Virus record (IMG/VR): IMGVR_UViG_3300036045_000009
Coordinates: 1-61,516 of that record
Reading direction: 5' to 3' (one strand)
DNA from: a virus
Taxonomy: Duplodnaviria; Caudoviricetes
Length of the DNA: 61,516 nt
Each line of letters begins with the position of its first letter. The stretch's first letter is position 1. Below the pieces are notes generated by a model. It did no database searches. It saw only the letters and a program-made list of their open reading frames with translations, and had not been told where the DNA came from. A program made the translations under genes and the position numbers. Positions 8,485-25,079 of this stretch are shown here, in pieces.

Positions 8485-9113
8485 TGGGCCTGAACTGGTC
8501 GCGCGCGCTGGAAGGAGCTGCGGAAGGTGTCGCTGTGATGGGCGCCCACCAGGCACGCCGCGAGGATCAGGAAATCGAGCAGTTGCGGCAGGAGAACTTC
8601 GCCCGCCTTACCGCGGGGTTGGCGATGGAGCGAGACCGCGCGAACAACGCCGACATCGACAAGCGGCAAAAGGACCGCGACGCCGCGATCGAGGATCGGC
8701 AGGACAGGCGTGACGCCGCCATGTTTGGCCGCCAGCAGAAACTCATCGAGTCGCAGGAGGCGCGCGAGGACATGCGCAATGCGCGCGCGATGGAACTCGA
8801 CGAGCGCCGCTCGATGCGCGAGAGGCTGGCCGACGCCAAGGCGCGCGCGGGTGAACTTCGGAAGCAAGAAGCTGATGCGCTCGCTGAACTCGAAGCGCTC
8901 GAAACCTCGACGATCGCCGATCCGAAGGTGATAGCGCGCCGGCGCCGACAGCTCGAGGAAATAGTCGGCGACCGGCAACTGGCCGAGCGTGACATCGTGC
9001 GCTTCCAGCAGCGTGGTATGCCTACACCGCCGCGCCGCGGTCAACCGTTCGCCCCATCGAAAGACCCGTTCGAGTTCGGTCCACAGCTCATCCCAACGCA
9101 ACCGGGGCGCTGA
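8484..9113 (+). CDS. Coiled-coil internal virion protein
   Basis: GGAGG RBS, TGATG coupling at both ends, Arg/Glu/Gln coiled coil. Confidence 0.65.
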   Translation: MGLNWSRALEGAAEGVAVMGAHQARREDQEIEQLRQENFARLTAGLAMERDRANNADIDKRQKDRDAAIEDRQDRRDAAMFGRQQKLIESQEAREDMRNARAMELDERRSMRERLADAKARAGELRKQEADALAELEALETSTIADPKVIARRRRQLEEIVGDRQLAERDIVRFQQRGMPTPPRRGQPFAPSKDPFEFGPQLIPTQPGR

Positions 9114-12100
9114 TGGCCTACGACTGGCTCGCCGACGCGGAACGCGAGCCTTCCGACAACGAAGGCTTCGAGTGGGTCCGCGATCCAAATGATGGGCTCT
9201 GGTACGAGTTGCCGCAGGTCACGCGGCGCGCGTCGTCATACCTGATCGACCCTGAAGATGCGGTCGGCGCGGACTCGGGCGCCCCGCAACTCATACCGAC
9301 GTCGCCTCCACAGGAGAAGTCGAGTTTTTTCGGTTCGCTGTTCGACATCGAAATGGCGGACCTTGGCAAACTGCTCGGCGCCGAGGGGATTTCGATGGTC
9401 AGGGGGGCGTCGCCGGTCAGTATGGCGTCGTTCGGTGAGCCGGCATCGTTCGGGCTCGATCCGACGCTGCTTGAAGCTCAGGCCGAACTCGCGAGCCCGG
9501 AGAGCCGCAAGGCAATCGACGCCGAACTCGCTGGACAGGAGAAGGCGCTGCTGGAGTCGCGATCGCCGGGCTCTCAGGCGATAGACCAAGAGTCCTATGC
9601 ACGCTGGCCCGAACCCGGCGAGCAAGGCTCGAGGGTCACGAAGTTTCTCGATGCGATGGCGCCGAGCAATCCGCTTGCGATCGGCGCGGTCGCGTTGCGC
9701 GAGGCGTTCCCAAATACCCCGTTCATTGGGCGCGACGCCAAATTGGGCGACTTCAGCGCGGCGAAGATCGCTCAGGACGTGACACGCAGTCTGCCAAGCA
9801 CAGCGGCTGGTATTGCCGCAGGCGGCGGCATCAGCAGCGTGGGGCGAAACCTCGCTGCCAGCGTCCTCCGTCGGGAAGCTGTAGAGCGAGCCGCTACCGA
9901 GGGTAGTGAACAGGCTGTGCGGCAACTCGCTCGCTTGCAGCGCATCGACAGGGTGATTTCCGGCGCTGGCTACGGCGCTGGCGAAGCTGTTATCGCCGCT
10001 CCACAGGCCGCGCAGGACGTGCGCGACGAGATACTCGAACTGCCCGCAGAACTGCTGTTCGAGAGCAATCGCTTCCGCGAAATCTACGATGCCGCTCGCG
10101 AGTTGCCGGAAGCCGAGCGTATTGCCTACGCCCGCGACACGCTCGCGAACGAGCTCGGCAATGCCGCGGGGTTTCGTGTCGCGGCAGTCACGTTCGCGAC
10201 GGGTCCGCTCGCTGCCGATGTGGCCGCGCGCGCCGGCCGTCTGATGGAAGGTCGCACCGCACAGGAGGCGATCGCTGCCAGCCGAGGTCGAGCCAAGCAG
10301 GCGCTCGTGTCAGGTGCCCAGGAAGCCGGGCAGGAATTCGTACAGAGCGGCGGGCAGGAGTTCGTGTCCGCCGAACAGGTTCGTACCGTCGATCCGACTG
10401 TCGACTCGCAGATGCGCATGGTCGAGGGGGCGATCGGCGGCATGTTCGCTGGCAGTGTGATGGGCGCTGGCGTCGGTGCGCTGACCGGAGGAAAGCGGCC
10501 CGCACTTGGCCGCGAGGCGCCGGCAGGTGTTCAACTTCCACAAGGGGAGAGCCCTGATCCCGTTGCCGGGCCAGCGGCTCAGGCAAGTATGGCTGACGTG
10601 AGCCGGCTGGCTCGCGCCGCCCGCGAGGCCGGCGTCGATCCGGCGGCGCTGCGCGAGGTCTCGCAGGCCGTCATCCGCAAACAGGTGGCGCCAGCCGAGG
10701 CCGCGGAAGCCCTGAATTCGCTCATTGAAGCAGCCCGCCAGACCGCCGCAGAGGCTGCTACGGCGGAGCAAGAGCCCCCAGCCACGGAGACCCCCGCAGA
10801 GCCCGCCGAGCCGCCGCTGCCCGCCCAGGGCGAGCCGGATATGGCTGCCACGCCGGCTGCTCTCCTTGCAGAAGAGACCGTGAAGGCCAGGTTCAAGCGG
10901 GAACTGCTGGCGGACGTTCCGGCTGCCTTGGAGCGCTATGCGGCGCTGCCGGGCACGGACAACGGCAGGATCCTCGCGCCGGACATGGCGAAGCGCCTGT
11001 CGCCCGAGTACGTGGCTGATCGGACGCTCTCCGATGAGGTGGCGCCAGGCGCCTCGCACCTGATGCAGGCTGCTTTCGACCAGGCGATCCAGCAGCCGGC
11101 GCCAGCGGGCAAGCAGAACTACGTCGTGTTGACCTCCGGCGGTACCGGGGCAGGCAAATCGACGATTGCCGCTGACGTGCCGGAGTACGGCGAGGCCCAG
11201 GTCGTGTACGACACGAACCTCGCGAGCTTTGAAGTGGCGAAGCGCCGAATAGACGCCGCGCGCGACGCCGGCAAGAGCGTCTACATCGTGCACGTCTATC
11301 GCGATCCGACGGAAAGTTTCCGTCAGGGCGTGCTGCCGCGCGCGATGGGCGCAGAAGGGCGGCCAATCACCGTCGAAAGCCATGCGCGCACGCACGCTCA
11401 GTCGAACGAGGTCGTGCGTCGGCTCGCGGCGGAATATGCCAGCGACGCAGGCGTCACCGTCGAGATAATCGACAATTCCCGCGGGCCAGGGAAGGCGAGC
11501 AAGATCGCGGTCGAGGCGCTGCCGGCGGTGGAGTACAATGCGACTCGTGACGCAGCCCAACAGCAACTCGAAGAAGCCTACGACGCCGACGAAATCTCCG
11601 ACCGCATCTACCGCGCCAGCGGCGGGCAGCGCACAGCGCGATCAGTCGTTCCGCGCGTGGAGCGATCGGGCGACGAAATCAGCGGTGGACGCGCTGAACC
11701 AGAAGTTCGGGCCGAAGTAGATGGATTTTCGCCGGGAAGTGATCGGCGGAATCCGAATCCTGATTCTCGACGAGGCGTCCGAAATACCCCCCGAGGTGTG
11801 GAACGCGAAGCCGGCAGCGCCGAGCACGGCAGTCGTGCGGACGCCGGACCCAATGAGGCTTCCCGGCCCCTTGCCCAAGATCGGTCCGCTGCCACCGAAG
11901 TAGCGGCCGACGCCGCGCCGGCAGAAGAACCAGCAGAGGAATTCGACAGCGATCACGTTGTCGACCGTGGCGCATACACCGGCGCCTACGACCACGACGC
12001 GAGAGTGGCTTCGCTGCGCGCGAAGCTGCGCGGCGACAAGGCGTTCAAGGCGGCGTTCAAGTCTCCCAACGGCAACGACAACGCGCACGTCGAATCTGGC

Positions 12101-15100
12101 CCCGCCATCTCGTTCTTGGACGGATGGGAGGACGCGGCGGCGGGCAAGCCGATCGACGAGGCGCGCATTTCTCGCCCTACGGCAGATATGAAGCCGTGGG
12201 GCTTCAACCCGGTCGACTCCTACCGCAGCGGGTACGAAAGCCAGAAAGCCGGGGAGCCGCGCCGGCTTCGCGTACTCGATCCGATCGAAACGCCCGACAA
12301 AGCCCCGGCCGCTGCAGCGCCGACCGAGGCGCAGCCTGAAACTGACGTCGCCAAGATCTTCGAGAAGATGCTGCTCGCCGGCGCGCCAACGCGGCTCGCG
12401 GAGTTCCGCAGGGCCTATGGCGAGTCGCTCGGACGCGCGGTTATCCCGCGAGACTTCAAGACCGTCGACGAGCTCGTCGAGCGCGCGTTGGTGACGGTCG
12501 CGCGCCGCATCGTTGATAACGCGAAGTCGCCGGCCGAAGCCTTCGACAAGCTGGTAGCGCTGTATCAGTCGCAGCCGACTCTGAGCACGCGCACGTCGAC
12601 AAGCATCGAAAATCAGGCGTACTCGACGCCAGCACCGCTCGCCTACCTCGCTTCGCGCCTTGCCGGCATCACGAAAGACACGTTCGTGCTCGAGCCGAGC
12701 GCGGGCAACGGCATGCTGCTGATCGAGGCGAATCCGAAGAACACGCACGCGGTCGAACTCAACGAAGAGAGGGCGGAGTCGCTGCGCGCGCAGGGGTTCG
12801 CGCCGGTCGTTGGCGACGCGCTGTGGCCGTCATCTGCACCGGACCACGAGCAGGATGTCGTGATTGCGAATCCCCCGTTCGGCGTCGTCAAGACCGACCA
12901 GGGCGACTCGCAGACGTTCTCGATCGACGTCGGCATGGGGCAGATGCGCACGACCGAGATCGACCACGCGATCGCGCTCACGGCGTTGAAGCACATGAAG
13001 GTCGACGGGCGCGCCGTGCTCATCATCGGCGGGATCAACAGACTCGCGAAGTCGCAGGAGGCGCGATCGGACGCTTACAACGGCGCGGCGAAGCGCAAGT
13101 TCTTCTTCAACCTGCAGCGCCTTTACAACGTCGTCGACCACTTCACCGTGTCCGGCGACCTGTACGCGAAGCAGGGCGCGGGCTGGCCGGTCGATATCAT
13201 CGTGATCGACGGGCGGAGGCCGTCTGTAAGGGCGCTCCCGGCTGTCGATGTGCCTCGGGTGTACAATTCCTGGGCGGACCTGAAACCGCTGCTTGAGGCG
13301 ACCAATGAGCGCAATGATCGCATGGGCACCGACACCGCTGCGGCGGTGGACGCGGCTGACCGCGGTGCTGTGCGCGCCGGGGCAGACGATGCAGCGCTCG
13401 ACGTACCTGTCGCTGCTCGGGGAGCGGATACAGCGGATGGTGGACGCAGCGCAGAGCCCGCAGGAAGCGGCGTCCAACCTGCAGACGTGGCTGCACGAAC
13501 TGGGGCTCGTGTCGGACCTCGGCCACGTGCCAGCGAGCGAAGCGGGGAACCGGCTGGTGTGGAGCAATCCAGCGGTGGAAGAGAAGCTCGGCAACTTGGG
13601 CTTCCTGCGGAACCTGCCGGAGCAAGTAGCGGAGATGCCGGAAGCGCGCCAGCAGACGGACCTCGATCAGAGCGACCCGCTCGGCCGGCTCGCGCTGTGG
13701 ACGAGCGACCTGCACGCGACGATGACGAAGTAACGACCGGCGGGCAAACCGCCTACAGACCTTCCAGCGCTGTCGAGGCCATCGGCACGCTCGTTCCCTC
13801 GAACATGCGCACGGCGATTGCCGACGCGCTCACGGATATGTCCGCGCGCGCCGGCAGCATCGACGAGTACGTCGCGCGCGAGCTCGGGTACGAGCCCGCG
13901 GAACTCGGCCGCTACTTCTCCGCGGAGCAGGTCGACGCGCTGGCGTTAGCGCTCGACCAAATGAGCCGTGGATCGGGCTTCATCATCGGCGACCAGACCG
14001 GCGTCGGCAAAGGCCGGTTTGTGGCCGGCATCATCCGCTACGCGCTGAAGAACGGCCGCATTCCGATCTTCGTCACGGAGAAGCCGAACCTATACGCGGA
14101 CATCGTTCGCGACCTGCGTGACATCGCACACAAGGACATCCGTCCGCTGATGACGAATGCCGGCGAGCGCGTGCCGATCGACGACAGCGGTAATGAACTG
14201 CGCACCCAAGGCAATTCGCCGCATAACGCGCTGTTGAACAGAATCGCCGGCAGCGCCGACCTCGGCGAGTTCAACATCGTGTTCACGACCTACAACCAGA
14301 TGCAGACACTCAAGGGCAAGCCCACCGAGCGCATGCTGCTGCTGCAGGCACTGGCGCCGAACGCGATCGTCATCTTCGACGAGTCGCATAACGCTGGCGG
14401 TAGCGACGCCGAAAGGCGCTCTCGCAATCAGAAGGCCGCCGACGGGGGCAGCCCCAAGACTGGACGAGCGGCGTTCGCGCGCGCGCTGGCAAGCACAGCA
14501 AAAGGCGTCGTGTACTCGTCGGCAACCTACGCCAAGCGCCCGTCGGTCATGGACCTGTACTTCAAGACCGACATGAGCCTCGCCGTCGAAGGCGACGCGA
14601 CGAAACTGCCAGCGGCGATCGCCCTTGGCGGCGTGCCGCTACAACAAGCGGTGGCTTCGATGCTCGCGAGGTCCGGTCAGTACATCCGCCGCGAACGCAC
14701 GTTTGAAGGCGTCGAGTACAACACGCCCGTTGTCGGCGTGGATCGGTCGGCGGCCGAGTCCATTTCCGCGATGATGCTGGCGGTCAAGCAATTCGACGAC
14801 GCGAAGGCTGGCGCGGTCGATGCGCTGAAACGGGCGGCGAAGGCCGAAGCGAAGGTCGTGACCGGGAGCACGGCGACGGGGGCGGCCGGCGCGCACTCGA
14901 CGAACTTCACCTCGGTCATGCACAACCTGATCGATCAGATGCTTCTGGCTCTGAAAGCCGATAAGGCGGCGGACCTCGCGCTCGAAGCGTTGAAGCGCGG
15001 CGAGAAGCCGGTCGTCACCGTCTCGAACACGATGGGCTCGTTCATCGAAGAGTACGCGGACGCAGCAGGACTCGCCGGCGGCGATGCGATCACGCTCACC

Positions 15101-18100
15101 TTCCGCGACCTGATGCTCCGCTACTTGGCGAAGTCGCGCGAAGTCCAGGTCAAGGACCACACCGGCAAAGCGACGCGCCACTACCTGACGGACGAAGAAC
15201 TCGGCGCCGCGGGGCTGTACATGTACAACAGTGCCCGCACGGTGATCGACGAGTCCCCGCAGATTCAGGCGGTGCCGATCAGCCCGATCGACTGGATTCA
15301 TCACCGGCTGCGCGAAGCCGGGTACTCGTCGGGTGAGATCACCGGGCGATCGCACACGATCGAGTACGGGAAGAACGGCAAGGCCACGTACAAGCTGCGA
15401 TCGAGCAAGGACACCTCGATACGAGCGCGGCGCAACGCCATCGACAACTTCAACAGCGGGAAGCTGGACGCGCTCGTCCTGAACCAGTCCGGCGCGACCG
15501 GCCTGTCACTGCATGCCAGCGAGAAGTTCAAGGACAAGCGGCGCCGGCGCATGGTCATCGCCCAGGCGGAAAAGAACATCGACACGCACATGCAGATGCT
15601 TGGCCGGGTGCATCGCACCGGCCAAGTCATTGCGCCAGCCTACGATCAACTTGTCGCCGACGTGCCCGCCGAGAAGCGCCCGGCGGCTGTACTCGCGAAG
15701 AAGATGGCGAGCCTGAACGCGAATACAACGGCCTCGCGCTCGAGCCAGTTCACGAGCAAGGAGACCGTCGACTTCCTGAACATCTACGGCGATGAAGTCG
15801 CCGCGCAGTTGATGACCGACCTACCGGAGATTCACCTGAAGCTCGGCGAGCCGCTGGCCGCGGGCGAAAACGGGCTCGAACGCATCGACGCCGCGCGCAA
15901 GGTCACCGGGCGCATCCCCATGCTGCCGGTCGACGAGCAGGAGTCGCTGTACGACCTCATCGAGAACGCCTACGCCGATCGTTTGCAACAGGCGGAGGCA
16001 ATGGGCGAGAACGCGCTGGAAGCCAAGACGCTGCCGCTCGATGCGCGGACGGTCGAGCGCCGCGTGATTTTCGACGGCAAGCAGGGGGCGAGCCCGTTCG
16101 CGGCCGGCGCCGTGGCCGAAGTCGTCGACGTGAAGCGCCTGGGCAAACCGTACACGTCGGAGAAGGTGCGCGAGCTCGTGGCGTCGACTCTCGAACAGCC
16201 CGCAGACAGCACGCTTTCAGCCCTGTCGCGCGCGGGGGAGTCGGCGCGAGCCGAAGTCGTGAAGGACGTGACGGCGAAGTTCGAGAAGTATCTGACGGCC
16301 GAAGAGACGCGGATGCTGGAGTCGGACATGCCGGAAGCCGCCCGTGAAGGGCGGGTCGGCGCATTACGTGGAATCAATGCGCGCTGGCGCGAACTCTCGT
16401 ACACGCTGCACGTAGGCGGAAGCTACGAACTCACGATGGAGGATGGCACGACGCTCTATGGCGTGGTGACCGAGATCCGCCACAAGAAGGGCGTGAAGAT
16501 GCCGGTCGCGCTCGGCTCGTGGATCGCACACTTCGCCGTGGCCGACGGCGCGCGCACATTGAGCATTCCGTTCTCGCGTATGTCCACACGCCAAGCAGCG
16601 GTCGCGGGCATGGGCACGGTGACGGTCGAGCGTGCCAGCCGTCACCCGCTGACTGGCGCAACGATTGAACAGATGTTCGACGACGGCCAGACCCTTAGCC
16701 GCGAACAGCGCGTCGTCGTGACCGGGAACCTGCTCGCCGGCTACTCGCAGATGAAGCGCGGGCAGATCGTGAACTACACCGATGCCGGCGGCCGGACGCT
16801 GCAAGGCATCCTCATGCCTCGCTCGTTCAACCTCGCCGAGTTCACGGCGGAAGCGCCGGTAACGGTTACCGCAGATCAGGCCATCAAACTGCTGCGCGCC
16901 GAGTACAGCTCGATCGTGCGCACGGCCGATGGGCTGGCACAGGTGTCACGAGCTGGCGGTGACTTCGCGATCTCTGTGCCGCGCAGCAAAGCGGAGGGCG
17001 GGAAGTATTTTCTCGATCGCGGCCTGCGCGAGATCGTCGGGGATTTCGTGAGCACGTCGAGCGCGATGCGCGTGCTCGTGCCGGGGAGCCTCGTGTCCGG
17101 CGCCCTGGACTACATCAACACACAGATGGGCCAGCGGCTTGAGGTCGTCACCCATCGCGAGGCAGCGATTCGCGTCGGCGGAACCGCCATCGGCTCGCGC
17201 AAGGTGGAAGCGAAACCAGCCGAGCCGGAGCCTCTGTATTCCCGAGCCCCGGTGTTCTATTCGACTGCCCTTGCAACCGCCGAAGCGCTGCCGCTGCGCA
17301 AGGCGAGCGGTCAACAGTGGTACGCAACGCTCTCGAAGCGCCCCGGCGTGAAGCCGGATGAGCTCGACTGGATGGGGCTGAAGGAATGGCTCGGCGATCG
17401 CGCTGGCGTGACAAAGGACGAACTGATCGAGTTCATGCGCGCGAACGAAATCAACATCGAGGAAACGGAGCTCGGCGGCGACCAAGACCCGCGTGTGACG
17501 GCGGTGAAGCGCCTGCTCGCCGCCGGCTACGAAATCGACGACGACTACACAGCGGTCATCACGAAGAACGGCGAGGACGTCCGTGACGAGGACATGACCG
17601 CTGCCGAGCTCGCCGATTGGGAATTCGTGCGCAACGACCTTCCGAATGCCGATGCTACGGGGGAGCCTCTCGCCACCAAGTACGACGAATACACGCTGCC
17701 CGGCGGCAAGAACTATCGCGAGCTGATGTTGCGGTTACCCGCGCGAGACACGGTTACGCAAGTGCCATCCCCGGCCCCGGCGGGATGGGGCGACACAGAC
17801 GGCGGGAATGTCGGTGTAGCGCGGCGAGGGAATATCAAGGCCGACTTTCGCGGCGGTCACTTCGACGAGCCCAACGTCATTGCGCATGTGCGCTTCAACG
17901 AGCGCATCGACGCCGATGGCAAGCGAGTGCTGTTCATCGAGGAGATTCAGAGCGACTGGCATCAGGCCGGCCGCCGGCGTGGCTATCGCGGGCGGCAGAC
18001 ACCGCGGCCGACGCTAGATGATGTGGCGCGCGAGGTCTACGGGCGACCGTACTCCGAACTGGACGAGCCGACTCGGGCGGCAGTAGACAGCGAACACGCA

Positions 18101-21100
18101 GCGCGCGAGCGCGGGACTGGTGGCGCAGCGCCCGCGACGGATGGCGGGAATGCGGTGCCCGACGCGCCATTCAAGACGACATGGCACGAACTCGCGCTCA
18201 AACGGATGATCCGCTACGCCGCGGAAAGCGGTTTCGATCGCGTCGCGTGGACGACGGGGCAGACGCAGGCCGATCGCTACAGCCTTCGAAAGCGCCTGTC
18301 CGCGATCTACTACAGCGGCAGCAACTTCTCTGCGGTCGACCACAACGGGAAGGAGGTCATCCGGCGTACTGGCGTCACTCGCGAAGAACTCCCCGAATTG
18401 ATAGGGAAGGCAGCAGCAGATCGCCTGTTAGCGAAGGAGCCTGACGGAACCCTTCGGTCGCTCGAAGGCGAGGATCTGGAAGTCGGCGGCGAAGGCATGC
18501 TCACGTTCTACGACAGCATGCTCGTCGTAGCCGCCAACAAGTACGTGAAGAAATGGGGCGCGAAAGTCGGGTCCACGACGATCAAGGCCGACAACGCGCC
18601 GGAGGAAGTGGTCGCGCGCACGGCCGCATCCGATCCGAAGCATCCGCTGGTCGTGAAAAACCGCCTGCCTGTTCACTCGGTCGACGTCACGCCGGCCATG
18701 CGTGACTCCGTGTTGGCCGGGCAGCCGCTATTCAGCGGCGCGAGGGCGTCAGGCGGCGCAACCGTCGCCCAGGTCAGGACTTGGCTCGGCCGTGCGATCG
18801 ACAAAACCCGTGGCGCGGCGGAGACGGTAATCGTTGCAGATGTCGACGAACTGCGCCGGGTTACCGGCCGGCCGAACATTCCCGATGACGTGGAAGGAGT
18901 GTACTTCCTCGGTGGTCGTACGGTGTACCTCGTCGCGAGCCGGCTGCCGGACGCGGCGACGGCGCAGCGCAAGTTCGCGCATGAGATGTTCGGGCACCTC
19001 GCCCCGGAGCGGTACGAGGACATGCGCCGCGCGGTGACGATGGTGCAAAACCTGCGACGCATGAAGTCGCAGAGCATCACCGCGCTGTGGGACGAGGTAT
19101 CGCGGCTGCAACCTGGACTGACGGACCTGCAACACGCGAAGGAAGTCATCGCGCTCATGGCCGAGCGCGGCGTGAAGAATTCGATCATGGACCGCTTGCT
19201 CGCGTGGGTGCGGCAGACGCTTCGGTCGTGGGGCGTCAACATCGAGCACGCGGAGGCGGAACTGCGCGCACTCATCGGTCGCGCTGCCCGTGCGCTCGAA
19301 TCCGATGCGCGGCTGTCCGCGCGCGACGAAGCGAGCGTTGCGGATGCCGACGCGAAGGATGATGTGTCGCTCGATGCCGCGCTCGGCGCGATGGACCTGG
19401 CGCGCTCGCCGCTGATCGAGTCCGGGGCGCCGCTGGAGCAGTTCTACGAGCGGCCGGCTGATGTATTGGACGGCGACGCGCTCGACGTGAACCTCGAGGC
19501 GCTTGACGACGCCATAGCCCGGCACTGGCTGCCGCAGTTCTCGCGTGATGACGGCAGCGCGTTCGCGGCGGAAGTGCTCGTAGAACTCGGCGCGGTGGAT
19601 GAACTATTCAAGCGGCCCACGACCGGCGCCGGTACTGTGCGCGAAGCTCTTGCCGCTATTGCGCCGGACATTGAGTGGGGCGGCACGGAACTGCCAGTTG
19701 AGGAAAGTGATTGGTTCCGCGCGGAGCGTCGGCACGTCGCCAAGCTTCCGAATGGCAAGCCGCTGTATGTATACGAACGTGGCCGCGAAGTCTGGATCGA
19801 CATCAGTGACAGTAGGCGTGGCGGTGGCGGTGATGCCGCTTATCAGGCCATCGCGGACTATGCCCGCAACACTGGCCGCCGCTTCATCGGTGATCCGATG
19901 GGGCTGTCGGCGGATGCCATTGTTCGCCGGACTTACCACATGCTCTCGAACATGGTCCGGTACGGCGACCTGCGCGGCTTCGAGCCGGCGCCAGCCCAAC
20001 TGGAGGGCGCGCCAGATCGTAGGATTGCACCGCTGGCGTGGCCGGCGGACAATGCAGGCCGGTTCCGGGCGCTGATCGAGTCGTTCTATCAGACGCATCG
20101 AAACCTGTACCCTTGGATCGAGAATGTTCGATACAACTTTGCCGAAAGACGATTTGTTGGTGATTCAGCAGATCGACTCAATCAGGCAGTACATCATGGG
20201 CCTTCCTCCCCTGAGTCCCGAGGAATTGGAGCGCCGCAGGCGGGGCGCCGAACGCTGCGAGCGGCTGTATTCCTCCAATCCCTCCTACGCAGCGAAAGCA
20301 GCGAAAGACCCGCTGTACTGGCACAAGTTCTACGCCAGCCAAGTGAACTGGTAACGAAGGGCGGGCTCGACCCGCTTTTCTCTCGCTCTCCACCCGAAGA
20401 TCCGCAGCTAGCCGCCGACCGCCGAAAAGTCATGGCCGCTGCCGGGCACGCGGCGTTGCCGCTGCGCGACCGCTTGCGCTTGTTTCTGCGCAAGCACCTC
20501 GACTTCTCGAAGCTCGCCGCGCGCCAGTACATCGCCAACAGCTTCGCCTCGATCGAGGCGTACGAGCGCCTTATCAACGCGGGGCAGTTGCAGGATGCGT
20601 CGGTCTCGCCCTACAAACAGACGGTCGCGACCCAGAACCTCGGCTCGGTGATGAGCGCGGTGCTGTCGCACGGCGTCCCTGTCTGGCGCGACGGGGCTTA
20701 CGTGGTCGCGGACGACGGCCGAAAGGGCATCACCGACATCTTCGCGCCGCTCGTGAATCACCCTGCCGGCAACCTTTTGCCGCAGTGGGAGTATTACGCC
20801 GCGGCTCGCCGGGCTGCGCGTCTCATCACGGAAGGGCGCGAGCGACTTTTCACGCAGGACATGATCGACCGCGCGTTGGAGCTCGCGACGACGTATCCCG
20901 AATTTGATGGCGTATTCAACGACTGGCAGACCTTCAACAAGCAAGCGCTCGACATGGCGGAGGAAGCCGGGCTTCTAAATGCCGAGAGTCGCGCGATCTG
21001 GGAGCGCAACGACTACGTGCCGTTCTACCGGGCGGTGGAAGCCGCGTCCGGTCGGCTGAATCCGGTCTCGCTGAAGAAGGCGATCGCGAACCAGCGCGCG

Positions 21101-23044
21101 AAAATAAAGCGGCTCGTTGGCGGAACCGCGGCACTTGAGGACGTGTTCGAGTCGATGCTGATGAACACGGCGCACTTGGTCGACACGTCCTTCAAGAACC
21201 GAGCCGCGCAAGCGATCGTCACGCAGTTCGACGGCGTGGCGACCTCTCGTGCGCCGAAGGCCGCACAGCCCGTCCGCCTGTCGACAGAGCGCGTGCGCTC
21301 GGCGCTCGAGGCCGCGGGCATTGAGACGCTTGGCGATGCGGAAGCCGAGTACATGACCTTCTTCCGCGCGGTAGCGCCGACAGACAAGAACGTGGTTTCG
21401 GTGATGTTCGATGGCAAGCCGAAGTATTTCGAGGTGCACGATCCCCTGCTGTTGGAGTCGATTGTGCAGATGCACCCGAGCGAGTTCTTGCGCCGGATCG
21501 ACGTGTTCGGCCTGCTGTCGGGCTCGAAGCGGCTGCTCACGCGAGCGGTGACTGCGCTGCCGGGATTCATCGTCGCCAACCTCATGCGCGACACCCTGTC
21601 GAACGTGGTGCAGAACGAGAACAAGAAGATCGGCGACATGCTGAAACTGACGTTCCTCACGGAGGCGGCGAAGGGCTTCAAGGATTACGTGACCGACAAT
21701 CGTGTCGTGCACGACCTCATGATGGCCGGTGCCGGCGGCGACCAGATTTACGACAACGAGCGCGGGACACTGAAGAAGATACTCACCCGCGCGATGCAGG
21801 ATGCCGAAGCCGACGGCTTCCTCGATACCGTGGTGTCTCCGCGGCGGATCTGGAACGCCTACCGCAAGTTGCAACAGGCGTCGGAGAACGCGAACCGCAT
21901 CGCCGTGTACCGCCTCGTGCGCCAGCGCGGCGGCTCGCATGCCGAAGCCGCGTACCAGGCGCATGACGTCCTGAACTTCCAGCAGCGCGGCTCGCACCCG
22001 TTGATGCAACTGTTGGTGATGACGGTGCCGTTCCTCAACGCCCGCGTGCAGGGCCTCGATCGCTTACAGCGGGGTTACGCCGCGAACCGCATGGGGTTCC
22101 TGCTCAAGGGGCTGTTGCTCACGTCGGCAACGCTGGCGCTGATGGCCGCTGGCGATGACGACGAGCGGTATCAGGAGTTGGAGGAGTGGGATCGCGACCT
22201 GTATTGGCACGGCTGGATCGGCGACACGCACATCCGTATTCCGAAGCCGTTCGAGATCGGGGTACTGTTCGCGACGCTGCCCGAGCGCGCCGTGCGACTG
22301 ATGCGCGGTCAGGACGCCTTTCGCACGACGGCAAAGTCACTCGGTCGAATCCTGTTCGACACCTTCGCCTTCAACCCGACGCCGCAACTGGCGAAGCCAG
22401 TGATCGAAGCGTGGGCGGGCAAGAGCTTCTTCACGGGGGCGCCGATTTTGTCGATGCAGGACAAGAACGTGCTGCCGGAGGCCCGCTACCGGCCGTGGAC
22501 GTCGCCGACGCTGATCGAGCTCGCGAAGGCGATGCCGGACGGCGCGCCGGAGTTTCTACGCTCGCCCGTGCAACTGGAACACCTGCTGCGGGGATACCTC
22601 GGTGGGATGGCGATGTTGGGGCTGGAAGTGTCGGACACGGTGACGCGCTCGGCCGGCGGGTATCCCGATGCGCCGGCGAAGGCGTTCCACGAGCACGTGT
22701 TGCGGCGGTTCGTGCGAGTGGGCGAGCCGCGGACGACGAAGTGGCACGACGAACTGTACCGGATGCTTGATGTCGCAGATGACACCGCGCGCACGATCAA
22801 GAAGCTCGGCGCCGAGGGGCAGATGGAGGCGGCGCGCCGGCTGGCGACAGAGCGCAAGGAACAGTTGCTCGTGCGCCCACGCTTGAACGACATCGCTCAG
22901 GAGATCCGGAAACTGAGTGCGCGGGCGCGCATGGTCCAGTCCTCGTCGATGACCGCCGAGCAGAAGCGGGCGGCGCTGGAGAAGATTTACGCGCGCCGCA
23001 ATGAACTGGCTCGCATGGTCGAGCCGTACGCCCCACTGTTCTAA
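9113..23044 (+). CDS. Giant DarB-like large polyvalent protein (4643 aa)
   Basis: Zeta-toxin-like P-loop GGTGAGKST (11138-11164); N6-MTase EPSAGNG (12692) and NPPF (12869); Strawberry-notch SF2 helicase GDQTGVGKG (13988) and DESH (14378); FIEEIQSDWHQ domain; metallopeptidase HEMFGH (18980); GNAT-like RRGGGGDAAYQAIADYA; C-terminal IRIPKPFEIG (LPD38-like). Confidence 0.9.
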   Translation: MAYDWLADAEREPSDNEGFEWVRDPNDGLWYELPQVTRRASSYLIDPEDAVGADSGAPQLIPTSPPQEKSSFFGSLFDIEMADLGKLLGAEGISMVRGASPVSMASFGEPASFGLDPTLLEAQAELASPESRKAIDAELAGQEKALLESRSPGSQAIDQESYARWPEPGEQGSRVTKFLDAMAPSNPLAIGAVALREAFPNTPFIGRDAKLGDFSAAKIAQDVTRSLPSTAAGIAAGGGISSVGRNLAASVLRREAVERAATEGSEQAVRQLARLQRIDRVISGAGYGAGEAVIAAPQAAQDVRDEILELPAELLFESNRFREIYDAARELPEAERIAYARDTLANELGNAAGFRVAAVTFATGPLAADVAARAGRLMEGRTAQEAIAASRGRAKQALVSGAQEAGQEFVQSGGQEFVSAEQVRTVDPTVDSQMRMVEGAIGGMFAGSVMGAGVGALTGGKRPALGREAPAGVQLPQGESPDPVAGPAAQASMADVSRLARAAREAGVDPAALREVSQAVIRKQVAPAEAAEALNSLIEAARQTAAEAATAEQEPPATETPAEPAEPPLPAQGEPDMAATPAALLAEETVKARFKRELLADVPAALERYAALPGTDNGRILAPDMAKRLSPEYVADRTLSDEVAPGASHLMQAAFDQAIQQPAPAGKQNYVVLTSGGTGAGKSTIAADVPEYGEAQVVYDTNLASFEVAKRRIDAARDAGKSVYIVHVYRDPTESFRQGVLPRAMGAEGRPITVESHARTHAQSNEVVRRLAAEYASDAGVTVEIIDNSRGPGKASKIAVEALPAVEYNATRDAAQQQLEEAYDADEISDRIYRASGGQRTARSVVPRVERSGDEISGGRAEPEVRAEVDGFSPGSDRRNPNPDSRRGVRNTPRGVEREAGSAEHGSRADAGPNEASRPLAQDRSAATEVAADAAPAEEPAEEFDSDHVVDRGAYTGAYDHDARVASLRAKLRGDKAFKAAFKSPNGNDNAHVESGPAISFLDGWEDAAAGKPIDEARISRPTADMKPWGFNPVDSYRSGYESQKAGEPRRLRVLDPIETPDKAPAAAAPTEAQPETDVAKIFEKMLLAGAPTRLAEFRRAYGESLGRAVIPRDFKTVDELVERALVTVARRIVDNAKSPAEAFDKLVALYQSQPTLSTRTSTSIENQAYSTPAPLAYLASRLAGITKDTFVLEPSAGNGMLLIEANPKNTHAVELNEERAESLRAQGFAPVVGDALWPSSAPDHEQDVVIANPPFGVVKTDQGDSQTFSIDVGMGQMRTTEIDHAIALTALKHMKVDGRAVLIIGGINRLAKSQEARSDAYNGAAKRKFFFNLQRLYNVVDHFTVSGDLYAKQGAGWPVDIIVIDGRRPSVRALPAVDVPRVYNSWADLKPLLEATNERNDRMGTDTAAAVDAADRGAVRAGADDAALDVPVAARGADTADGGRSAEPAGSGVQPADVAARTGARVGPRPRASERSGEPAGVEQSSGGREARQLGLPAEPAGASSGDAGSAPADGPRSERPARPARAVDERPARDDDEVTTGGQTAYRPSSAVEAIGTLVPSNMRTAIADALTDMSARAGSIDEYVARELGYEPAELGRYFSAEQVDALALALDQMSRGSGFIIGDQTGVGKGRFVAGIIRYALKNGRIPIFVTEKPNLYADIVRDLRDIAHKDIRPLMTNAGERVPIDDSGNELRTQGNSPHNALLNRIAGSADLGEFNIVFTTYNQMQTLKGKPTERMLLLQALAPNAIVIFDESHNAGGSDAERRSRNQKAADGGSPKTGRAAFARALASTAKGVVYSSATYAKRPSVMDLYFKTDMSLAVEGDATKLPAAIALGGVPLQQAVASMLARSGQYIRRERTFEGVEYNTPVVGVDRSAAESISAMMLAVKQFDDAKAGAVDALKRAAKAEAKVVTGSTATGAAGAHSTNFTSVMHNLIDQMLLALKADKAADLALEALKRGEKPVVTVSNTMGSFIEEYADAAGLAGGDAITLTFRDLMLRYLAKSREVQVKDHTGKATRHYLTDEELGAAGLYMYNSARTVIDESPQIQAVPISPIDWIHHRLREAGYSSGEITGRSHTIEYGKNGKATYKLRSSKDTSIRARRNAIDNFNSGKLDALVLNQSGATGLSLHASEKFKDKRRRRMVIAQAEKNIDTHMQMLGRVHRTGQVIAPAYDQLVADVPAEKRPAAVLAKKMASLNANTTASRSSQFTSKETVDFLNIYGDEVAAQLMTDLPEIHLKLGEPLAAGENGLERIDAARKVTGRIPMLPVDEQESLYDLIENAYADRLQQAEAMGENALEAKTLPLDARTVERRVIFDGKQGASPFAAGAVAEVVDVKRLGKPYTSEKVRELVASTLEQPADSTLSALSRAGESARAEVVKDVTAKFEKYLTAEETRMLESDMPEAAREGRVGALRGINARWRELSYTLHVGGSYELTMEDGTTLYGVVTEIRHKKGVKMPVALGSWIAHFAVADGARTLSIPFSRMSTRQAAVAGMGTVTVERASRHPLTGATIEQMFDDGQTLSREQRVVVTGNLLAGYSQMKRGQIVNYTDAGGRTLQGILMPRSFNLAEFTAEAPVTVTADQAIKLLRAEYSSIVRTADGLAQVSRAGGDFAISVPRSKAEGGKYFLDRGLREIVGDFVSTSSAMRVLVPGSLVSGALDYINTQMGQRLEVVTHREAAIRVGGTAIGSRKVEAKPAEPEPLYSRAPVFYSTALATAEALPLRKASGQQWYATLSKRPGVKPDELDWMGLKEWLGDRAGVTKDELIEFMRANEINIEETELGGDQDPRVTAVKRLLAAGYEIDDDYTAVITKNGEDVRDEDMTAAELADWEFVRNDLPNADATGEPLATKYDEYTLPGGKNYRELMLRLPARDTVTQVPSPAPAGWGDTDGGNVGVARRGNIKADFRGGHFDEPNVIAHVRFNERIDADGKRVLFIEEIQSDWHQAGRRRGYRGRQTPRPTLDDVAREVYGRPYSELDEPTRAAVDSEHAARERGTGGAAPATDGGNAVPDAPFKTTWHELALKRMIRYAAESGFDRVAWTTGQTQADRYSLRKRLSAIYYSGSNFSAVDHNGKEVIRRTGVTREELPELIGKAAADRLLAKEPDGTLRSLEGEDLEVGGEGMLTFYDSMLVVAANKYVKKWGAKVGSTTIKADNAPEEVVARTAASDPKHPLVVKNRLPVHSVDVTPAMRDSVLAGQPLFSGARASGGATVAQVRTWLGRAIDKTRGAAETVIVADVDELRRVTGRPNIPDDVEGVYFLGGRTVYLVASRLPDAATAQRKFAHEMFGHLAPERYEDMRRAVTMVQNLRRMKSQSITALWDEVSRLQPGLTDLQHAKEVIALMAERGVKNSIMDRLLAWVRQTLRSWGVNIEHAEAELRALIGRAARALESDARLSARDEASVADADAKDDVSLDAALGAMDLARSPLIESGAPLEQFYERPADVLDGDALDVNLEALDDAIARHWLPQFSRDDGSAFAAEVLVELGAVDELFKRPTTGAGTVREALAAIAPDIEWGGTELPVEESDWFRAERRHVAKLPNGKPLYVYERGREVWIDISDSRRGGGGDAAYQAIADYARNTGRRFIGDPMGLSADAIVRRTYHMLSNMVRYGDLRGFEPAPAQLEGAPDRRIAPLAWPADNAGRFRALIESFYQTHRNLYPWIENVRYNFAERRFVGDSADRLNQAVHHGPSSPESRGIGAPQAGRRTLRAAVFLQSLLRSESSERPAVLAQVLRQPSELVTKGGLDPLFSRSPPEDPQLAADRRKVMAAAGHAALPLRDRLRLFLRKHLDFSKLAARQYIANSFASIEAYERLINAGQLQDASVSPYKQTVATQNLGSVMSAVLSHGVPVWRDGAYVVADDGRKGITDIFAPLVNHPAGNLLPQWEYYAAARRAARLITEGRERLFTQDMIDRALELATTYPEFDGVFNDWQTFNKQALDMAEEAGLLNAESRAIWERNDYVPFYRAVEAASGRLNPVSLKKAIANQRAKIKRLVGGTAALEDVFESMLMNTAHLVDTSFKNRAAQAIVTQFDGVATSRAPKAAQPVRLSTERVRSALEAAGIETLGDAEAEYMTFFRAVAPTDKNVVSVMFDGKPKYFEVHDPLLLESIVQMHPSEFLRRIDVFGLLSGSKRLLTRAVTALPGFIVANLMRDTLSNVVQNENKKIGDMLKLTFLTEAAKGFKDYVTDNRVVHDLMMAGAGGDQIYDNERGTLKKILTRAMQDAEADGFLDTVVSPRRIWNAYRKLQQASENANRIAVYRLVRQRGGSHAEAAYQAHDVLNFQQRGSHPLMQLLVMTVPFLNARVQGLDRLQRGYAANRMGFLLKGLLLTSATLALMAAGDDDERYQELEEWDRDLYWHGWIGDTHIRIPKPFEIGVLFATLPERAVRLMRGQDAFRTTAKSLGRILFDTFAFNPTPQLAKPVIEAWAGKSFFTGAPILSMQDKNVLPEARYRPWTSPTLIELAKAMPDGAPEFLRSPVQLEHLLRGYLGGMAMLGLEVSDTVTRSAGGYPDAPAKAFHEHVLRRFVRVGEPRTTKWHDELYRMLDVADDTARTIKKLGAEGQMEAARRLATERKEQLLVRPRLNDIAQEIRKLSARARMVQSSSMTAEQKRAALEKIYARRNELARMVEPYAPLF
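11538..11720 (+). CDS. Nested +1-frame ORF A (60 aa) after the zeta-like kinase domain
   Basis: C-terminal half DQSFRAWSDRATKSAVDALNQKFGPK is an amphipathic helix unlike GC-rich shadow frames; its stop abuts the ATG of ORF B. Confidence 0.45.
   Translation: MRLVTQPNSNSKKPTTPTKSPTASTAPAAGSAQRDQSFRAWSDRATKSAVDALNQKFGPK
11721..11903 (+). CDS. Nested +1-frame ORF B (60 aa) with a terminase Walker-B-like motif
   Basis: IRILILDEASEIPPEVWNA; rich in Ile/Leu/Glu; the host frame here is a low-complexity linker. Confidence 0.55.
   Translation: MDFRREVIGGIRILILDEASEIPPEVWNAKPAAPSTAVVRTPDPMRLPGPLPKIGPLPPK
13389..13733 (+). CDS. Nested +1-frame ORF C (114 aa; alternative ATG 13305) after the MTase domain
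   Basis: Globular helical composition (YLSLLGERIQRMVDAA, LQTWLHELGLV, LALWTSDL); the host frame reads as an R/A/G/P shadow sequence. Confidence 0.65.
   Translation: MQRSTYLSLLGERIQRMVDAAQSPQEAASNLQTWLHELGLVSDLGHVPASEAGNRLVWSNPAVEEKLGNLGFLRNLPEQVAEMPEARQQTDLDQSDPLGRLALWTSDLHATMTK
20196..20354 (+). CDS. Nested +1-frame ORF D (52 aa; alternative ATG 20124) after the GNAT-like domain
   Basis: LSPEELERRRRGAERCERLY...DPLYWHKFYASQVNW, aromatic and charged, with a local drop in GC. Confidence 0.55.
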   Translation: MGLPPLSPEELERRRRGAERCERLYSSNPSYAAKAAKDPLYWHKFYASQVNW

Positions 23045-23075
23045 CTTGCGCTGACGGATCACTCGGCGAGCATCG
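23045..23075 (+). promoter_or_regulatory. Putative late promoter motif, copy 1 (CTTGCGCTGAC)
   Basis: One of four same-strand copies at operon starts; lies directly upstream of terL. Confidence 0.55.
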
Positions 23076-23080
23076 GTACG

Positions 23081-24562
23081 ATGCAAGCCGCCTCCGCTGA
23101 ACTGCACGCTGGCGATGACGAGATCGCCGAAATCGCCGCGCAGTACCTCTACGATCCCTGGGGCTACGCGCTCGCCATGTACCCGTGGGGGCAGGCGGGG
23201 ACGCCGTACGAAAAGTGGCCGGATGGGCCGGACGTGTGGCAGTCGACGGTGCTGCGCGACATCGGCGCGCACATGTACGCGGTGGCGACCCACCGGGCTC
23301 CGGAGCCCACGACGCAGATCGCTGTGCGCAGCGGCCACGGCATAGGTAAGTCCTGGCTTATACAGACGCTAGTGCAGTGGTTCCTGTCGACGCGCGTCAC
23401 CCCGCAGGTCGTCGTCACCGCGGGCACCAAGACGCAGCTCGAAACGAAGCTCTGGCGCGAACTCAACAAGAACTACCGCTACACGCTGAACGCGCACTGG
23501 TTCGACTGGCAGGCGACGTCCTTCTCGCTGAAAGGCGAGGGCAAGCAATGGGCGGCGAATGCGATCCCGTGGTCACGCGATAACGCCGCCGCGTTCCAGG
23601 GCACGCACGAGCAGGACGTGCTCATTGTTTACGACGAGGCGAGCGCCATTGCCGACGAGATATGGGAGGCGTCCGAGGGCGCGTTCACCACCCGCGGCGG
23701 CCTGTGGATCGCGTTCGGCAACCCGACGAGCGAGACCGGCCGATTCTCTGAGTGCTTCGGGCGCTTCAAGCATCGCTGGCTGACGTACACGATCGACGCG
23801 CGGAATGCGAAGGCCGCGGATCACGCGAAGTTGCAGGAGTGGGTCGACGACTACGGCGAGGACAGCGACTTCGTGCGCGTCCGCGTTCGCGGCCTCCCGC
23901 CGAAGTCGTCGGAGACAGGGCTGATCTCGGCGTCGCTCGTGCAGCAGGCGGTCGACCGCGACATCGAAGAGGACTTCATCCCCGACACGATCCCGCGCGT
24001 GTGCGGGATTGACGTGGCGTATGGCGGCACCGCTCGCACAGCGCTCGTGTTCCGTCGCGGCCCCATTGTGACCGCGCGCGACATAATCCGGTTCTCGGAG
24101 TCGAATCACATGCACCTCGCGGACCGGATCGCGACGCTGCTCTCGACGGAACGGCCGGACGCCGCCTTTATCGACGCGCATGGCGCTGGCAAGGGCGTTT
24201 ATGACCGGCTGATCCAACTCGGCTACACGAACGTCATCCCCTGCTACGCCGGCGATCGCTCGGCGGTCATCGAAAAGCTGCTGTACTACAACCCGCGCGC
24301 GGAGTGGTGGAGCCGCCTCGCGCGCTGGCTCACGGAGTCGAAGATCCCGCCGGACAACGACCTGCGCGACGAACTCGTGGCGCAGCCCGTTCACTACGAC
24401 ACCGCGCGCCGCCTCCAACTGATGTCGAAAGAGGACATGCGCGAACTGAATCTGCCGTCACCCGACACGGGCGATGCGCTCGCGCTGACCTTCGCGCAAT
24501 CGGTCGCCCCCGTTCGCATGCCGGGATTCTCGGGCCAGAAAGGCTTGCCGGAGGTCGTGTAG
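23081..24562 (+). CDS. terL: Terminase large subunit
   Basis: Walker A SGHGIGKS, Walker B LIVYDEAS, coupling motif FGNP, RNase-H nuclease CGIDVA and SPDTGDALALTF. Confidence 0.95.
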   Translation: MQAASAELHAGDDEIAEIAAQYLYDPWGYALAMYPWGQAGTPYEKWPDGPDVWQSTVLRDIGAHMYAVATHRAPEPTTQIAVRSGHGIGKSWLIQTLVQWFLSTRVTPQVVVTAGTKTQLETKLWRELNKNYRYTLNAHWFDWQATSFSLKGEGKQWAANAIPWSRDNAAAFQGTHEQDVLIVYDEASAIADEIWEASEGAFTTRGGLWIAFGNPTSETGRFSECFGRFKHRWLTYTIDARNAKAADHAKLQEWVDDYGEDSDFVRVRVRGLPPKSSETGLISASLVQQAVDRDIEEDFIPDTIPRVCGIDVAYGGTARTALVFRRGPIVTARDIIRFSESNHMHLADRIATLLSTERPDAAFIDAHGAGKGVYDRLIQLGYTNVIPCYAGDRSAVIEKLLYYNPRAEWWSRLARWLTESKIPPDNDLRDELVAQPVHYDTARRLQLMSKEDMRELNLPSPDTGDALALTFAQSVAPVRMPGFSGQKGLPEVV

Positions 24563-24636: not shown

Positions 24637-24792
24637 ATGGGCGCAGTGGAATCCATCGGAGTGCTGGCCGCCGTAAGCGTGCTCGGCTACTTCGGCTGGC
24701 GCATCTACTCGAAGAGGAAGCAACGCACGGAAGGCGCCGGATCAGGCGGTGGCGGCGGCAGCGGCCCGTTCGATCGCCCGAACAAGCACTGA
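24637..24792 (+). CDS. Small single-pass membrane protein (51 aa; not in the ORF track)
   Basis: GGAGG RBS; MGAVESIGVLAAVSVLGYFGWRIYSKRK is a TM segment with a basic tail. Confidence 0.65.
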   Translation: MGAVESIGVLAAVSVLGYFGWRIYSKRKQRTEGAGSGGGGGSGPFDRPNKH

Positions 24793-24803
24793 TTACCCAA
24801 GGG

Positions 24804-25079
24804 GTGAACGTGGACAACAGAAATCGCGACCCCTTGGCGATCACGATTGCTGTTGCCGGCCTGCTCGTGCAGACGGGCATGTGGTTCTACTGGTCCGGCC
24901 GGCTCGAGCAGCGAGTCACGAATGTCGAGACCACCGTATCCGCGACCGCTTCTCGATCGGCTCTGCACCTCGAGAAGGACAGCCAACAGGATGCGCAGAT
25001 CGCCGTCACCGTCGCGCAGTACACGGAAGTGCTGCGTCGATTGAACAACATCGAGACGTCGATCGAAAGACTGCGGTGA
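24804..25079 (+). CDS. Holin-like protein (one TM plus coiled coil)
   Basis: LAITIAVAGLLVQTGMWFYW TM segment followed by a coiled coil; directly upstream of the endolysin. Confidence 0.55.
   Translation: MNVDNRNRDPLAITIAVAGLLVQTGMWFYWSGRLEQRVTNVETTVSATASRSALHLEKDSQQDAQIAVTVAQYTEVLRRLNNIETSIERLR

Follow-up and report, generated by a model that had tools for sequence, protein, structure and literature searches.

Candidate small genes nested in the +1 frame at domain boundaries of a giant polyvalent phage protein

Can the linkers and domain edges of a giant phage protein carry further genes in another reading frame? The question is raised by IMG/VR virus record IMGVR_UViG_3300036045_000009, a near-complete virus record (Caudoviricetes) of 61,516 nucleotides (nt), or 61.5 kb, whose whole length is termed the window here. 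One of its genes encodes a polyvalent protein of 4643 amino acids (aa), and an original prediction, made from the sequence alone, placed four open reading frames (ORFs) inside this gene, on the same strand and in its +1 frame. These ORFs, termed n1 to n4, were all found at the predicted positions (Table 1), and coordinate arithmetic places each of them wholly within 9113-23044. Three domain boundaries of the giant gene very probably hold genuine same-strand +1 genes: n3 in the linker between a methylase and a helicase module, n4 over the tail of an LPD37 domain, and n1 at the end of a zeta-like kinase. Sequence comparisons indicate that conserved coding frames, rather than shadows of the host frame, account for at least two and probably three of the four, with strong support for n3, good support for n4, and moderate support for n1.

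The giant gene as a whole has a guanine-plus-cytosine (GC) content of 0.69/0.48/0.79 at codon positions 1/2/3. At 11513-11900, 13313-13700, and ~20063-20360, GC at host position 3 (GC3) drops to ~0.5 and GC at position 1 (GC1) rises to 0.8-0.87, so that host position 3 resembles a normal position 2 and host position 1 resembles a normal position 3. A log-likelihood scan of codon usage detects only three switches in the giant gene, all to +1, at 11603-11873, 13373-13763, and 20123-20273. The shift in GC3 and codon phase predicted for these clusters is thus present. Open +1 frames by themselves are not significant at 65% GC: in trials that redraw the codons but hold the host protein fixed, the +1 frame is free of stops in 75% (n1), 86% (n2), 51% (n3), and 31% (n4) of cases. 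Longer +1 or +2 ORFs that lack a coding signal also occur in the giant gene, for example at 19599-20075. A contrast case is provided by window positions 9700-10800, where the host protein is rich in A, P, and E and GC1 exceeds GC3, with no +1 coding signal except in one weak scan segment at 10493. This region is an ordinary low-complexity linker without a nested gene.

The best-supported ORF is n3. Its 114-aa core matches 17 predicted proteins (67-156 aa) with 45-56% identity (E values from 2.7e-28 to 1.5e-13), and the 67-aa fragment P0018 is 63% identical to the core over half its length. The alignment of homologues extends upstream to the ATG at 13305 and includes an invariant EAGNRL..SN block that is kept in the window. 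Most homologues are free-standing, including a 147-aa stand-alone gene at three metagenome loci, and these free-standing forms begin at the same residue as n3; at a fourth locus (L005), the free-standing homologue carries an internal stop. Modeling of n3 with AlphaFold2 from a 31-sequence alignment predicts a short hairpin followed by seven helices, with a predicted local distance difference test (pLDDT) score of 94.5 and a predicted template-modeling score of 0.89. No match of this model to a known fold was found: Foldseek comparisons with PDB and BFVD give a best E value above 1, VIA-align against 48,161 chains gives a best Z score of 3.0, a profile search of PDB sequences gives no match, and the best score in the ESM Atlas, 0.85 for JetA/MukF fragments, is under the meaningful level. 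Likewise, tblastn of n3 against phage and plasmid records and blastn of positions 11000-14500 against phages returned no match, and the n3 alignment produced pattern matches but no confirmed relative among viral and genome contigs. Judged from its homologues and predicted structure, n3 represents a real and new protein family.

The original prediction proposed that homologues of the nested peptides be sought beside the same host domain, and for n3 this search is rewarded in all relatives examined. A search with the methylase domain produced 17 viral loci (36-53% identity, 42-65% GC; L016 being identical to L017). Sixteen of these keep the host frame open throughout, have the rotated GC pattern just past the methylase domain, and contain a +1 ORF of 92-178 aa. 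The remaining locus, L022, has the same layout with a +1 ORF of ~150 aa. L022 also has one in-frame stop inside the methylase domain (~3199-3201), past which the giant frame continues; this stop could reflect a pseudogene, a sequencing error, or recoding. Locus L030 (49% GC) has a 160-aa +1 ORF with n3-family motifs in the methylase-helicase linker, and Bacteroides phage BS-TP4 (46% GC) has 213 stops in the +1 frame over 14.2 kb, but precisely in this linker 121 codons are open. An ORF with its own ATG is therefore found in the same linker of all 17 viral relatives, L030, and BS-TP4. When the window and the free-standing n3 forms were aligned by hhalign to 14 nested ORFs of the relatives, similarity was found over the N-terminal 57 columns (probability 96.3%, E 1.5e-9).

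The position of n3-type ORFs is also consistent. The nested start sits in the last conserved methylase motif, and in most relatives only a few codons separate the nested stop from the point where conservation of the helicase module begins; four relatives carry additional host sequence inserted at this place. In each aligned ORF, an ATG precedes the conserved N-terminal segment by a few codons; this segment includes a W-x-P motif in most cases, L006 and L009 excepted. Pairing of the sequence before these starts with the anti-Shine-Dalgarno sequence averages -5.76 kcal/mol, versus -2.81 kcal/mol at control ATGs (p = 7e-4, 16 loci). The host tract over n3 is rich in G, S, A, R, D, and P, and the nested proteins are rich in L, E, and A. 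In each of 16 n3-type loci, nested codons are depleted in third-position T; in the window its frequency is 0.014, compared with 0.105 at third positions elsewhere in the gene. When nested codons are redrawn from the usage of the gene, the host frame is open in only 0-24% of trials per locus (summed log10 of -34 over 16 loci), and a more conservative permutation within each ORF gives a summed log10 of -17.5. Because T-ending nested codons are avoided, the host frame is kept open.

The neighbors of free-standing n3 genes include a DruA/Mom-like gene, IS66, an integrase, and an HlyD-like gene, and have nothing in common with the window or its relatives. At L004 (1648-2362, 4098-5563), the DruA/Mom-like gene is directly upstream of the free-standing homologue and an IS66 transposase is present. 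On the same contig, a 124-aa ORF overlaps a short zeta-toxin-like gene. A candidate 142-aa partner of the free-standing homologue in L002 was rejected because it looks non-coding.

The second case, n4, overlaps the final ~57 codons of the host LPD37 domain, which appear to be dual-coding. The original prediction assigned a GNAT-like domain to this part of the host; Pfam instead identifies LPD37 and detects no GNAT family at E <= 0.1. The similarity of the host LPD37 region to Erwinia phages PEp14, Stean, and Pavtok runs through the n4 stretch. Single-sequence scans of viral contigs with the kinase and LPD37 regions gave no match, and alignment-based scans later found loci for both. The LPD37 scan produced nine viral loci, of which L033 is counted as PEp14, three have the LPD37 "tail," and five do not. 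A +1 ORF of 74-76 aa is present in every lineage with the tail, namely the window, the PEp14 group, L031, L032, and L034. The start site (M-x-D-T-T) is common to these five lineages, as GTG in the Erwinia phages and as ATG in the other four, and so is the stop site; their predicted nested products are 36-57% identical, with 18 invariant columns among four sequences. In L034, with a GC of only 40%, 74 codons would all be open by chance with a probability of 0.008.

Between the window and PEp14, the nested frame of n4 is 37% identical (E 2e-12), compared with 28% (E 3e-8) for the host frame over the same bases, and among lineages the host tail is itself conserved at 28-55% identity. The claim that the host frame degrades into linker at the nested ORFs thus applies to n3 and n1, where it is low-complexity read-through, but not to n4. 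We interpret n4 as true dual coding in which both frames appear constrained, a conclusion held less firmly than that for n3. A word search with n4 gave no candidate. LPD37 and Zeta_toxin were not found in the records of five relatives, in a search that for LPD37 was also silent in control genomes.

Comparison of the two cases suggests that they differ in kind: n3 is asymmetric, with a constrained nested frame and a host frame that is only kept open, and n4 is symmetric, with both frames conserved. Start and stop are kept at the same place in diverged relatives for n3 and n4, moderately so for n1, and not for n2. Selection on the nested frame is evident for n3, whereas at n4 both frames are equally conserved.

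The third candidate, n1, has a Shine-Dalgarno-like GGAG 4 nt before its ATG and a +1 codon signal from about 11603. The nearest relative, protein P0020, is 62% identical in the kinase; it has no LPD37, the alignment ends at ~nt 11660, and the linker after the kinase is ~40 residues long, compared with ~110 in the window. The alignment-based kinase scan produced 32 viral loci, of which 25 were evaluated (six were dropped as apparent duplicates, with identical table entries or an identical ORF, or, for L061, as too short, and one ran off its contig). All 25 have a +1 ORF of 52-124 codons across the domain end, with a stop 52-184 nt past the match. Most of these ORFs end in ..[ML][VL].[NSE]LN[RKQ].., some (for example, L063, L065, and L068) only approximately, and n1 of the window ends in ..AVDALNQKFGPK. 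A hidden Markov model (HMM) of the relatives' ORFs, built with the window excluded, selects n1 from 103 alternative-frame ORFs with an E value of 5.1e-8, the next being ~1. With an HMM of the last 30 residues, which lie past the conserved kinase, two +1 tiles over n1 are the best of 690 three-frame tiles (E 0.002-0.003), and a host-frame HMM of the same bases has no match there. Of the 25 loci, 11 have a host frame that terminates no more than 300 nt further on. In the group with low GC, the termination codon falls within the small ORF, which leaves a free-standing kinase gene whose 3' end is overlapped by a small gene. There is moderate support, from these comparisons, for n1 belonging to a conserved family of small ORFs that straddle the end of zeta-like kinases.

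No such family is apparent for n2, which directly follows n1. Its +1 codon signal covers only the first half, it has no counterpart in any of the 25 evaluated relatives, and a joined n1-X-n2 query of 1.84 billion representatives gave 0 matches. Most likely, n2 is not a conserved gene; perhaps it is a relic. The proposal that the nested frames are real genes is therefore supported, to the degrees given above, for n3, n4, and n1, but not for n2.

Nested +1 frames recur in many unrelated phages and on a plasmid. Codon scans, which miss low-GC loci, detect 8 switches in four giant genes and 11 in 16 loci, all to +1 and none to +2. The layout is also found in the isolate genomes of PEp14, Stean, Pavtok, Bcep22, and BS-TP4, and nested genes in such proteins are unannotated in five isolate records. 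In PEp14, the giant gene switches to +1 at L023 6259-6570 and 8572-8895. By eye, n1 and n2 have no convincing alignment with the first nested ORF of PEp14. The second (about 8578-8895) resembles positions 22-83 of TnpV (PF14198) with an E value of 4.3e-4, although its 20.7 bits are under the Pfam gathering cut-off of 27 bits; Pfam gives no TnpV match for the window ORFs. A comparison of the three Erwinia phages gives substitution rates of 0.16-0.18/0.09-0.11/0.11 at host positions 1/2/3 over this TnpV-like ORF, versus 0.04-0.06/0.02-0.04/0.20-0.24 elsewhere in the giant gene. The substitution periodicity has moved to the nested frame, which also has fewer and milder amino acid changes (15 versus 21 of 106).

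The Bcep22 giant gene, gp75, has two +1 switches. In both PEp14 (L023 8572-8895) and Bcep22 gp75 (L029 14248-14661), a ~105-aa +1 ORF with a strong codon signal lies ~200-300 codons upstream of an Eco57I-type methylase; the two ORFs at this equivalent place have no significant similarity. The five tail-less LPD37 loci, L035-L039 (~1750-2000), have a different conserved +1 ORF after the LPD37 core, and the same ORF family is found at L026, on a Massilia violaceinigra plasmid (~2150-2400). The six loci share the motif ..EALPDE.L.ALMK..G.S.EWMQYLS.TRIL.LL.., over which the host frame is a G/A/D/S/R linker. Sequence conservation marks this ORF as a further nested-gene family that is carried on a plasmid too. 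BS-TP4 has a second short +1 ORF (L024 3290-3460; 56 aa, MDNNEAMYWLAILQQ...), with a codon score above that of the host frame, ~110 codons upstream of an InPase domain.

Several observations weigh against interpreting these ORFs as genes. No RNA run is listed that contains the stretch, and Pfam, PHROGs, NCBIfam, PADLOC, PDB, and BFVD contain nothing for the nested ORFs of the window. For n3, the distant n3-like ORFs are weakly supported when taken singly: an HMM built from the free-standing forms listed 7 of the 16 ORFs of relatives, L010 alone with an E value under 0.001 (Z = 1e6). The confident structural model draws mainly on the window's close free-standing homologues. Starts at 3 of the 16 loci (L017, L021, and BS-TP4) pair with the anti-Shine-Dalgarno sequence more weakly than the control ATGs of their own locus. 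The host frame has the higher raw local alignment score in 119 of 153 pairs of n3-type loci. However, the host frame wins these comparisons because it is low-complexity; the excess over shuffled sequences is 22.0 for the nested frame versus 9.7 for the host frame.

For n4, substitution rates at host positions 1/2/3 of the homologue are 0.19-0.22/0.08-0.09/0.22-0.24 in two comparisons with Pavtok (rates between PEp14 and Stean are much lower, 0.03/0.01/0.07). The Erwinia phages thus have no purifying pattern specific to the nested frame of the n4 homologue, and its amino acid changes are equal in both frames, 23 versus 21 of 75. The frame-specific substitution analysis that had been proposed therefore favors the nested frame for the TnpV-like ORF of PEp14 but not for n4. 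For n1, part of the HMM score comes from a stretch where the host kinase is itself conserved; moreover, a +1 ORF across the kinase end exists by construction, and, with stops at 0.01-0.06 per codon, lengths of 52-124 codons are not unlikely. For n2, there is no support beyond local codon bias.

Could the nested frames be fossils, that is, remains of swallowed small genes that now serve only as linker, are unexpressed, and have a decaying +1 signal? We consider this improbable for the set as a whole. It fits n2, and perhaps the whole n1/n2 segment, where a TAG splits the +1 signal, where the joined segment is without homologues, and where P0020 has the far shorter linker. The internal stop in the free-standing homologue at L005 is in line with it as well. 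However, an intact n3-type ORF with its own ATG is found in every relative examined, from 42 to 65% GC, and profile homology and the invariant family residues are retained in the window. Because n3 is retained across such divergence, it is presumably not a silent fossil. Similarly, n4 keeps its start and stop in five lineages. As to the nested stops in close relatives that had been named as grounds for refutation, n3-type ORFs are intact in the relatives examined, the stop site of n4 is kept in five lineages, and one free-standing n3 homologue, at L005, is interrupted.

A second explanation is programmed +1 frameshifting, which would yield a shortened polyprotein ending in the nested domain, and no separate small protein. 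The nested ORFs are on the same strand, always in +1, and always at a domain boundary, and some slippage is conceivable. Nonetheless, we find it hard to credit. In L007, L008, and L017, a +1 stop lies directly before the nested ATG or within a few codons of it; because these stops leave almost no room for entry, a frameshift into the nested frame is unlikely. In addition, all aligned n3-type ORFs have an ATG before the conserved N-terminal segment, Shine-Dalgarno-like sites are enriched there, and free-standing homologues begin at that same residue.

A compositional artefact, in which codons for G/S/A/R/D/P linkers simply leave the +1 frame free of stops, is very unlikely to account for the findings. 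Openness is indeed expected (the probability of an open +1 frame is 0.31-0.86 in the window and 0.01-0.84 in relatives). However, this explanation cannot account for a host GC3 of ~0.5 in a genome with a GC3 of 0.79, for positive +1 codon scores, for free-standing homologues and a model with pLDDT 94.5, for conserved starts and stops, or for an open frame in relatives of 40-46% GC. It is contradicted for n3 and n4, and is possible for n2. Finally, paired indel errors of assembly or sequencing, for which nothing speaks beyond the frame switch itself, can be virtually dismissed: contigs from a second sample are identical to the window, without indels or variants, over the pieces compared (including 11786-12176, 12865-13272, 13297-13560, and 19955-20329), and therefore the frames are not assembly errors; the same layout exists in the five isolate genomes named above, and the nested frames are bounded by stops.

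If the nested ORFs are genes, ribosomes would initiate internally on the late giant mRNA, at the ATG of each small gene and by way of a Shine-Dalgarno site, and each small protein would therefore appear alongside the giant protein in the producing cell. Their origin may lie in the fusion of neighboring genes by read-through of an intervening small gene in its -1 frame, with the small gene remaining functional. Such read-through fusion is suggested because free-standing n3 forms and free-standing pairs of a kinase and a small gene exist. The original prediction that the polyprotein grew by absorbing cassettes of an effector and its partner agrees with these forms, but is not matched by the neighbors of free-standing n3 genes, which are unrelated to the methylase. 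Nested +1 genes are probably a general building principle of polyvalent proteins. As to function, we suggest only tentatively that the nested proteins may be accessory factors of the flanking module, acting in folding, silencing, or packaging. The antitoxin or regulator role raised in the original prediction gains no support; comparisons with protein families, folds, and defence systems gave no match. It is rather doubtful, though conceivable, that all of this combines into one scheme, in which read-through of partner genes in their -1 frame is the general building principle, every linker shadows a living gene, and each nested protein is the cognate handler (chaperone, inhibitor, or packaging adaptor) of the adjacent effector, made from the same mRNA.

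Separate promoters for the nested genes are not apparent. The original prediction noted that a TACAAY hexamer resembling a -10 element accompanies each cluster. Hexamers are present at 11534, 13262, and 20132, the last of these within n4 itself, but the + strand of the giant gene has 10 copies, and a scan of 9000-23200 for sigma-70-like promoters found none. These hexamers are ordinary Tyr-Asn codon pairs, not promoters. The whole window has 29 copies, versus 10.4 expected from shuffles, an excess that probably reflects preferred Tyr and Asn codons and not a signal. An Rfam scan of 9000-23200 detected no RNA family.

The giant gene unites several unrelated effector domains and LPD domains in one phage polypeptide, as is characteristic of polyvalent proteins. 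Its relatives in Erwinia phage PEp14 and Burkholderia phage Bcep22 are both annotated as "DarB-like antirestriction," and the homologue in phage JC1 was detected in virions by mass spectrometry (PMC9144972). Elsewhere, the window encodes a serine integrase, portal, major head protein, tail fibres, terminase, and endolysin. The gene for the terminase large subunit (23081-24562) is directly 3' of the giant gene and is followed by the endolysin gene (24749-25474); genes for the serine integrase and a large DNA methyltransferase are on the opposite strand (26924-30584).

Table 1. Coordinates of the giant host gene, its domains, and the ORFs nested in it
Feature	Position	Strand	Basis
Host gene, polyvalent DarB-like virion protein, 4643 aa	9113..23044	+	ORF list, Pfam domains, relatives
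Zeta-toxin-like P-loop kinase domain of host (aa 696-788)	11198..11476	+	Pfam PF06414, E 2.5e-10
n1, +1 ORF, 60 aa	11538..11720	+	ORF list, codon scan, HMMs
n2, +1 ORF, 60 aa, directly after n1 (TAG-ATG)	11721..11903	+	ORF list; unverified
N6-adenine methyltransferase domain of host (about aa 1160-1307)	12590..13033	+	Pfam N6_Mtase; aligned with 15 relatives
Shine-Dalgarno-like GAGG, 6 nt before n3 start	13295..13298	+	Upstream sequence, duplex energy -6.0 kcal/mol
n3, +1 ORF, 142 aa; alternative TTG start 13293	13305(ATG)..13733	+	Homologues, codon scan, model
Strawberry-notch-type helicase module of host (aa 1614-2299)	13952..16009	+	Pfam AAA_34/Helicase_C_4 (Sno)
LPD37 domain of host (aa 3487-3727)	19571..20293	+	Pfam, E 1.2e-55
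n4, +1 ORF, 76 aa, over LPD37 tail	20124..20354	+	Homologues, codon scan
LPD38 domain of host (aa 4350-4515)	22160..22657	+	Pfam

Polyvalent, DarB-like proteins are among the largest proteins of phages and plasmids and serve as first-strike counter-defence, and their low-complexity linkers have so far been treated as spacers. If some of these linkers are genes, annotation pipelines miss a whole class of phage genes, because gene callers forbid nesting on the same strand. The findings would also supply a concrete route by which such giants are built, namely out-of-frame read-through fusion that keeps the swallowed gene alive. The new families would be candidate partners of methylase, helicase, kinase, and LPD37 modules, one of them with a confident model and no known fold, and would offer a natural system for studying how two frames share one sequence. 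Within the literature searched, small genes nested at domain boundaries of polyvalent proteins seem to be previously undescribed.

Embedded genes as such are already known in phages, as with Rz1 in Rz. Rz1 is read in a different frame from Rz. The Rz/Rz1 spanins of lambda-like phages, which are annotated in PEp14, Bcep22, and JC1, resemble the present case in that a small same-strand gene with its own start lies wholly inside a larger one in another frame; embedded spanins of this type are described for JC1 (PMC9144972). Here, however, the small genes lie over inter-domain linkers or domain tails of a giant injected protein, one host gene contains several of them, and their families have no relation to spanins.

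The host gene itself conforms to the polyvalent proteins of Iyer et al. (2017; PMC5512222), in which many effector domains are combined with LPD37/LPD38 in one polypeptide. Nested genes distinguish it from that published concept, as far as a term search of the main text of that paper goes, which gave no mention of overlapping, frameshifting, linkers, or TnpV. TnpV offers a likeness only for the nested ORF of PEp14, a relative, and not for the window.

The accessory proteins of P1 DarB are DarA, Hdf, DdrA, DdrB, and Ulx. These partners are encoded by separate neighboring genes, whereas the candidate partners described here are inside the giant gene, and no sequence relation between them was found. 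The parallel lies in the giant methylase-helicase antirestriction proteins of DarB type, which are packaged in virions and are reported to need small partner proteins (PMC9144972, citing Piya 2017).

Zeta/epsilon pairs likewise combine a zeta-like kinase with a small co-located gene, as does the n1 family. The epsilon gene lies upstream of zeta; n1-type ORFs, by contrast, are downstream and overlap the 3' end of the kinase. Neither n1 nor n2 matches any family (0 in Pfam, PHROGs, PADLOC, and NCBIfam), and no relation to epsilon or another known antitoxin was found for them.

A comparison can also be made with the overprinted genes of small viruses, in which a single DNA segment specifies two proteins, the composition of one frame is unusual, and the choice among synonymous codons is limited. 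In classic overprinting, the new frame arises de novo inside an old gene. At n3, by contrast, the nested frame looks older and autonomous, and the host frame appears to be the newcomer.

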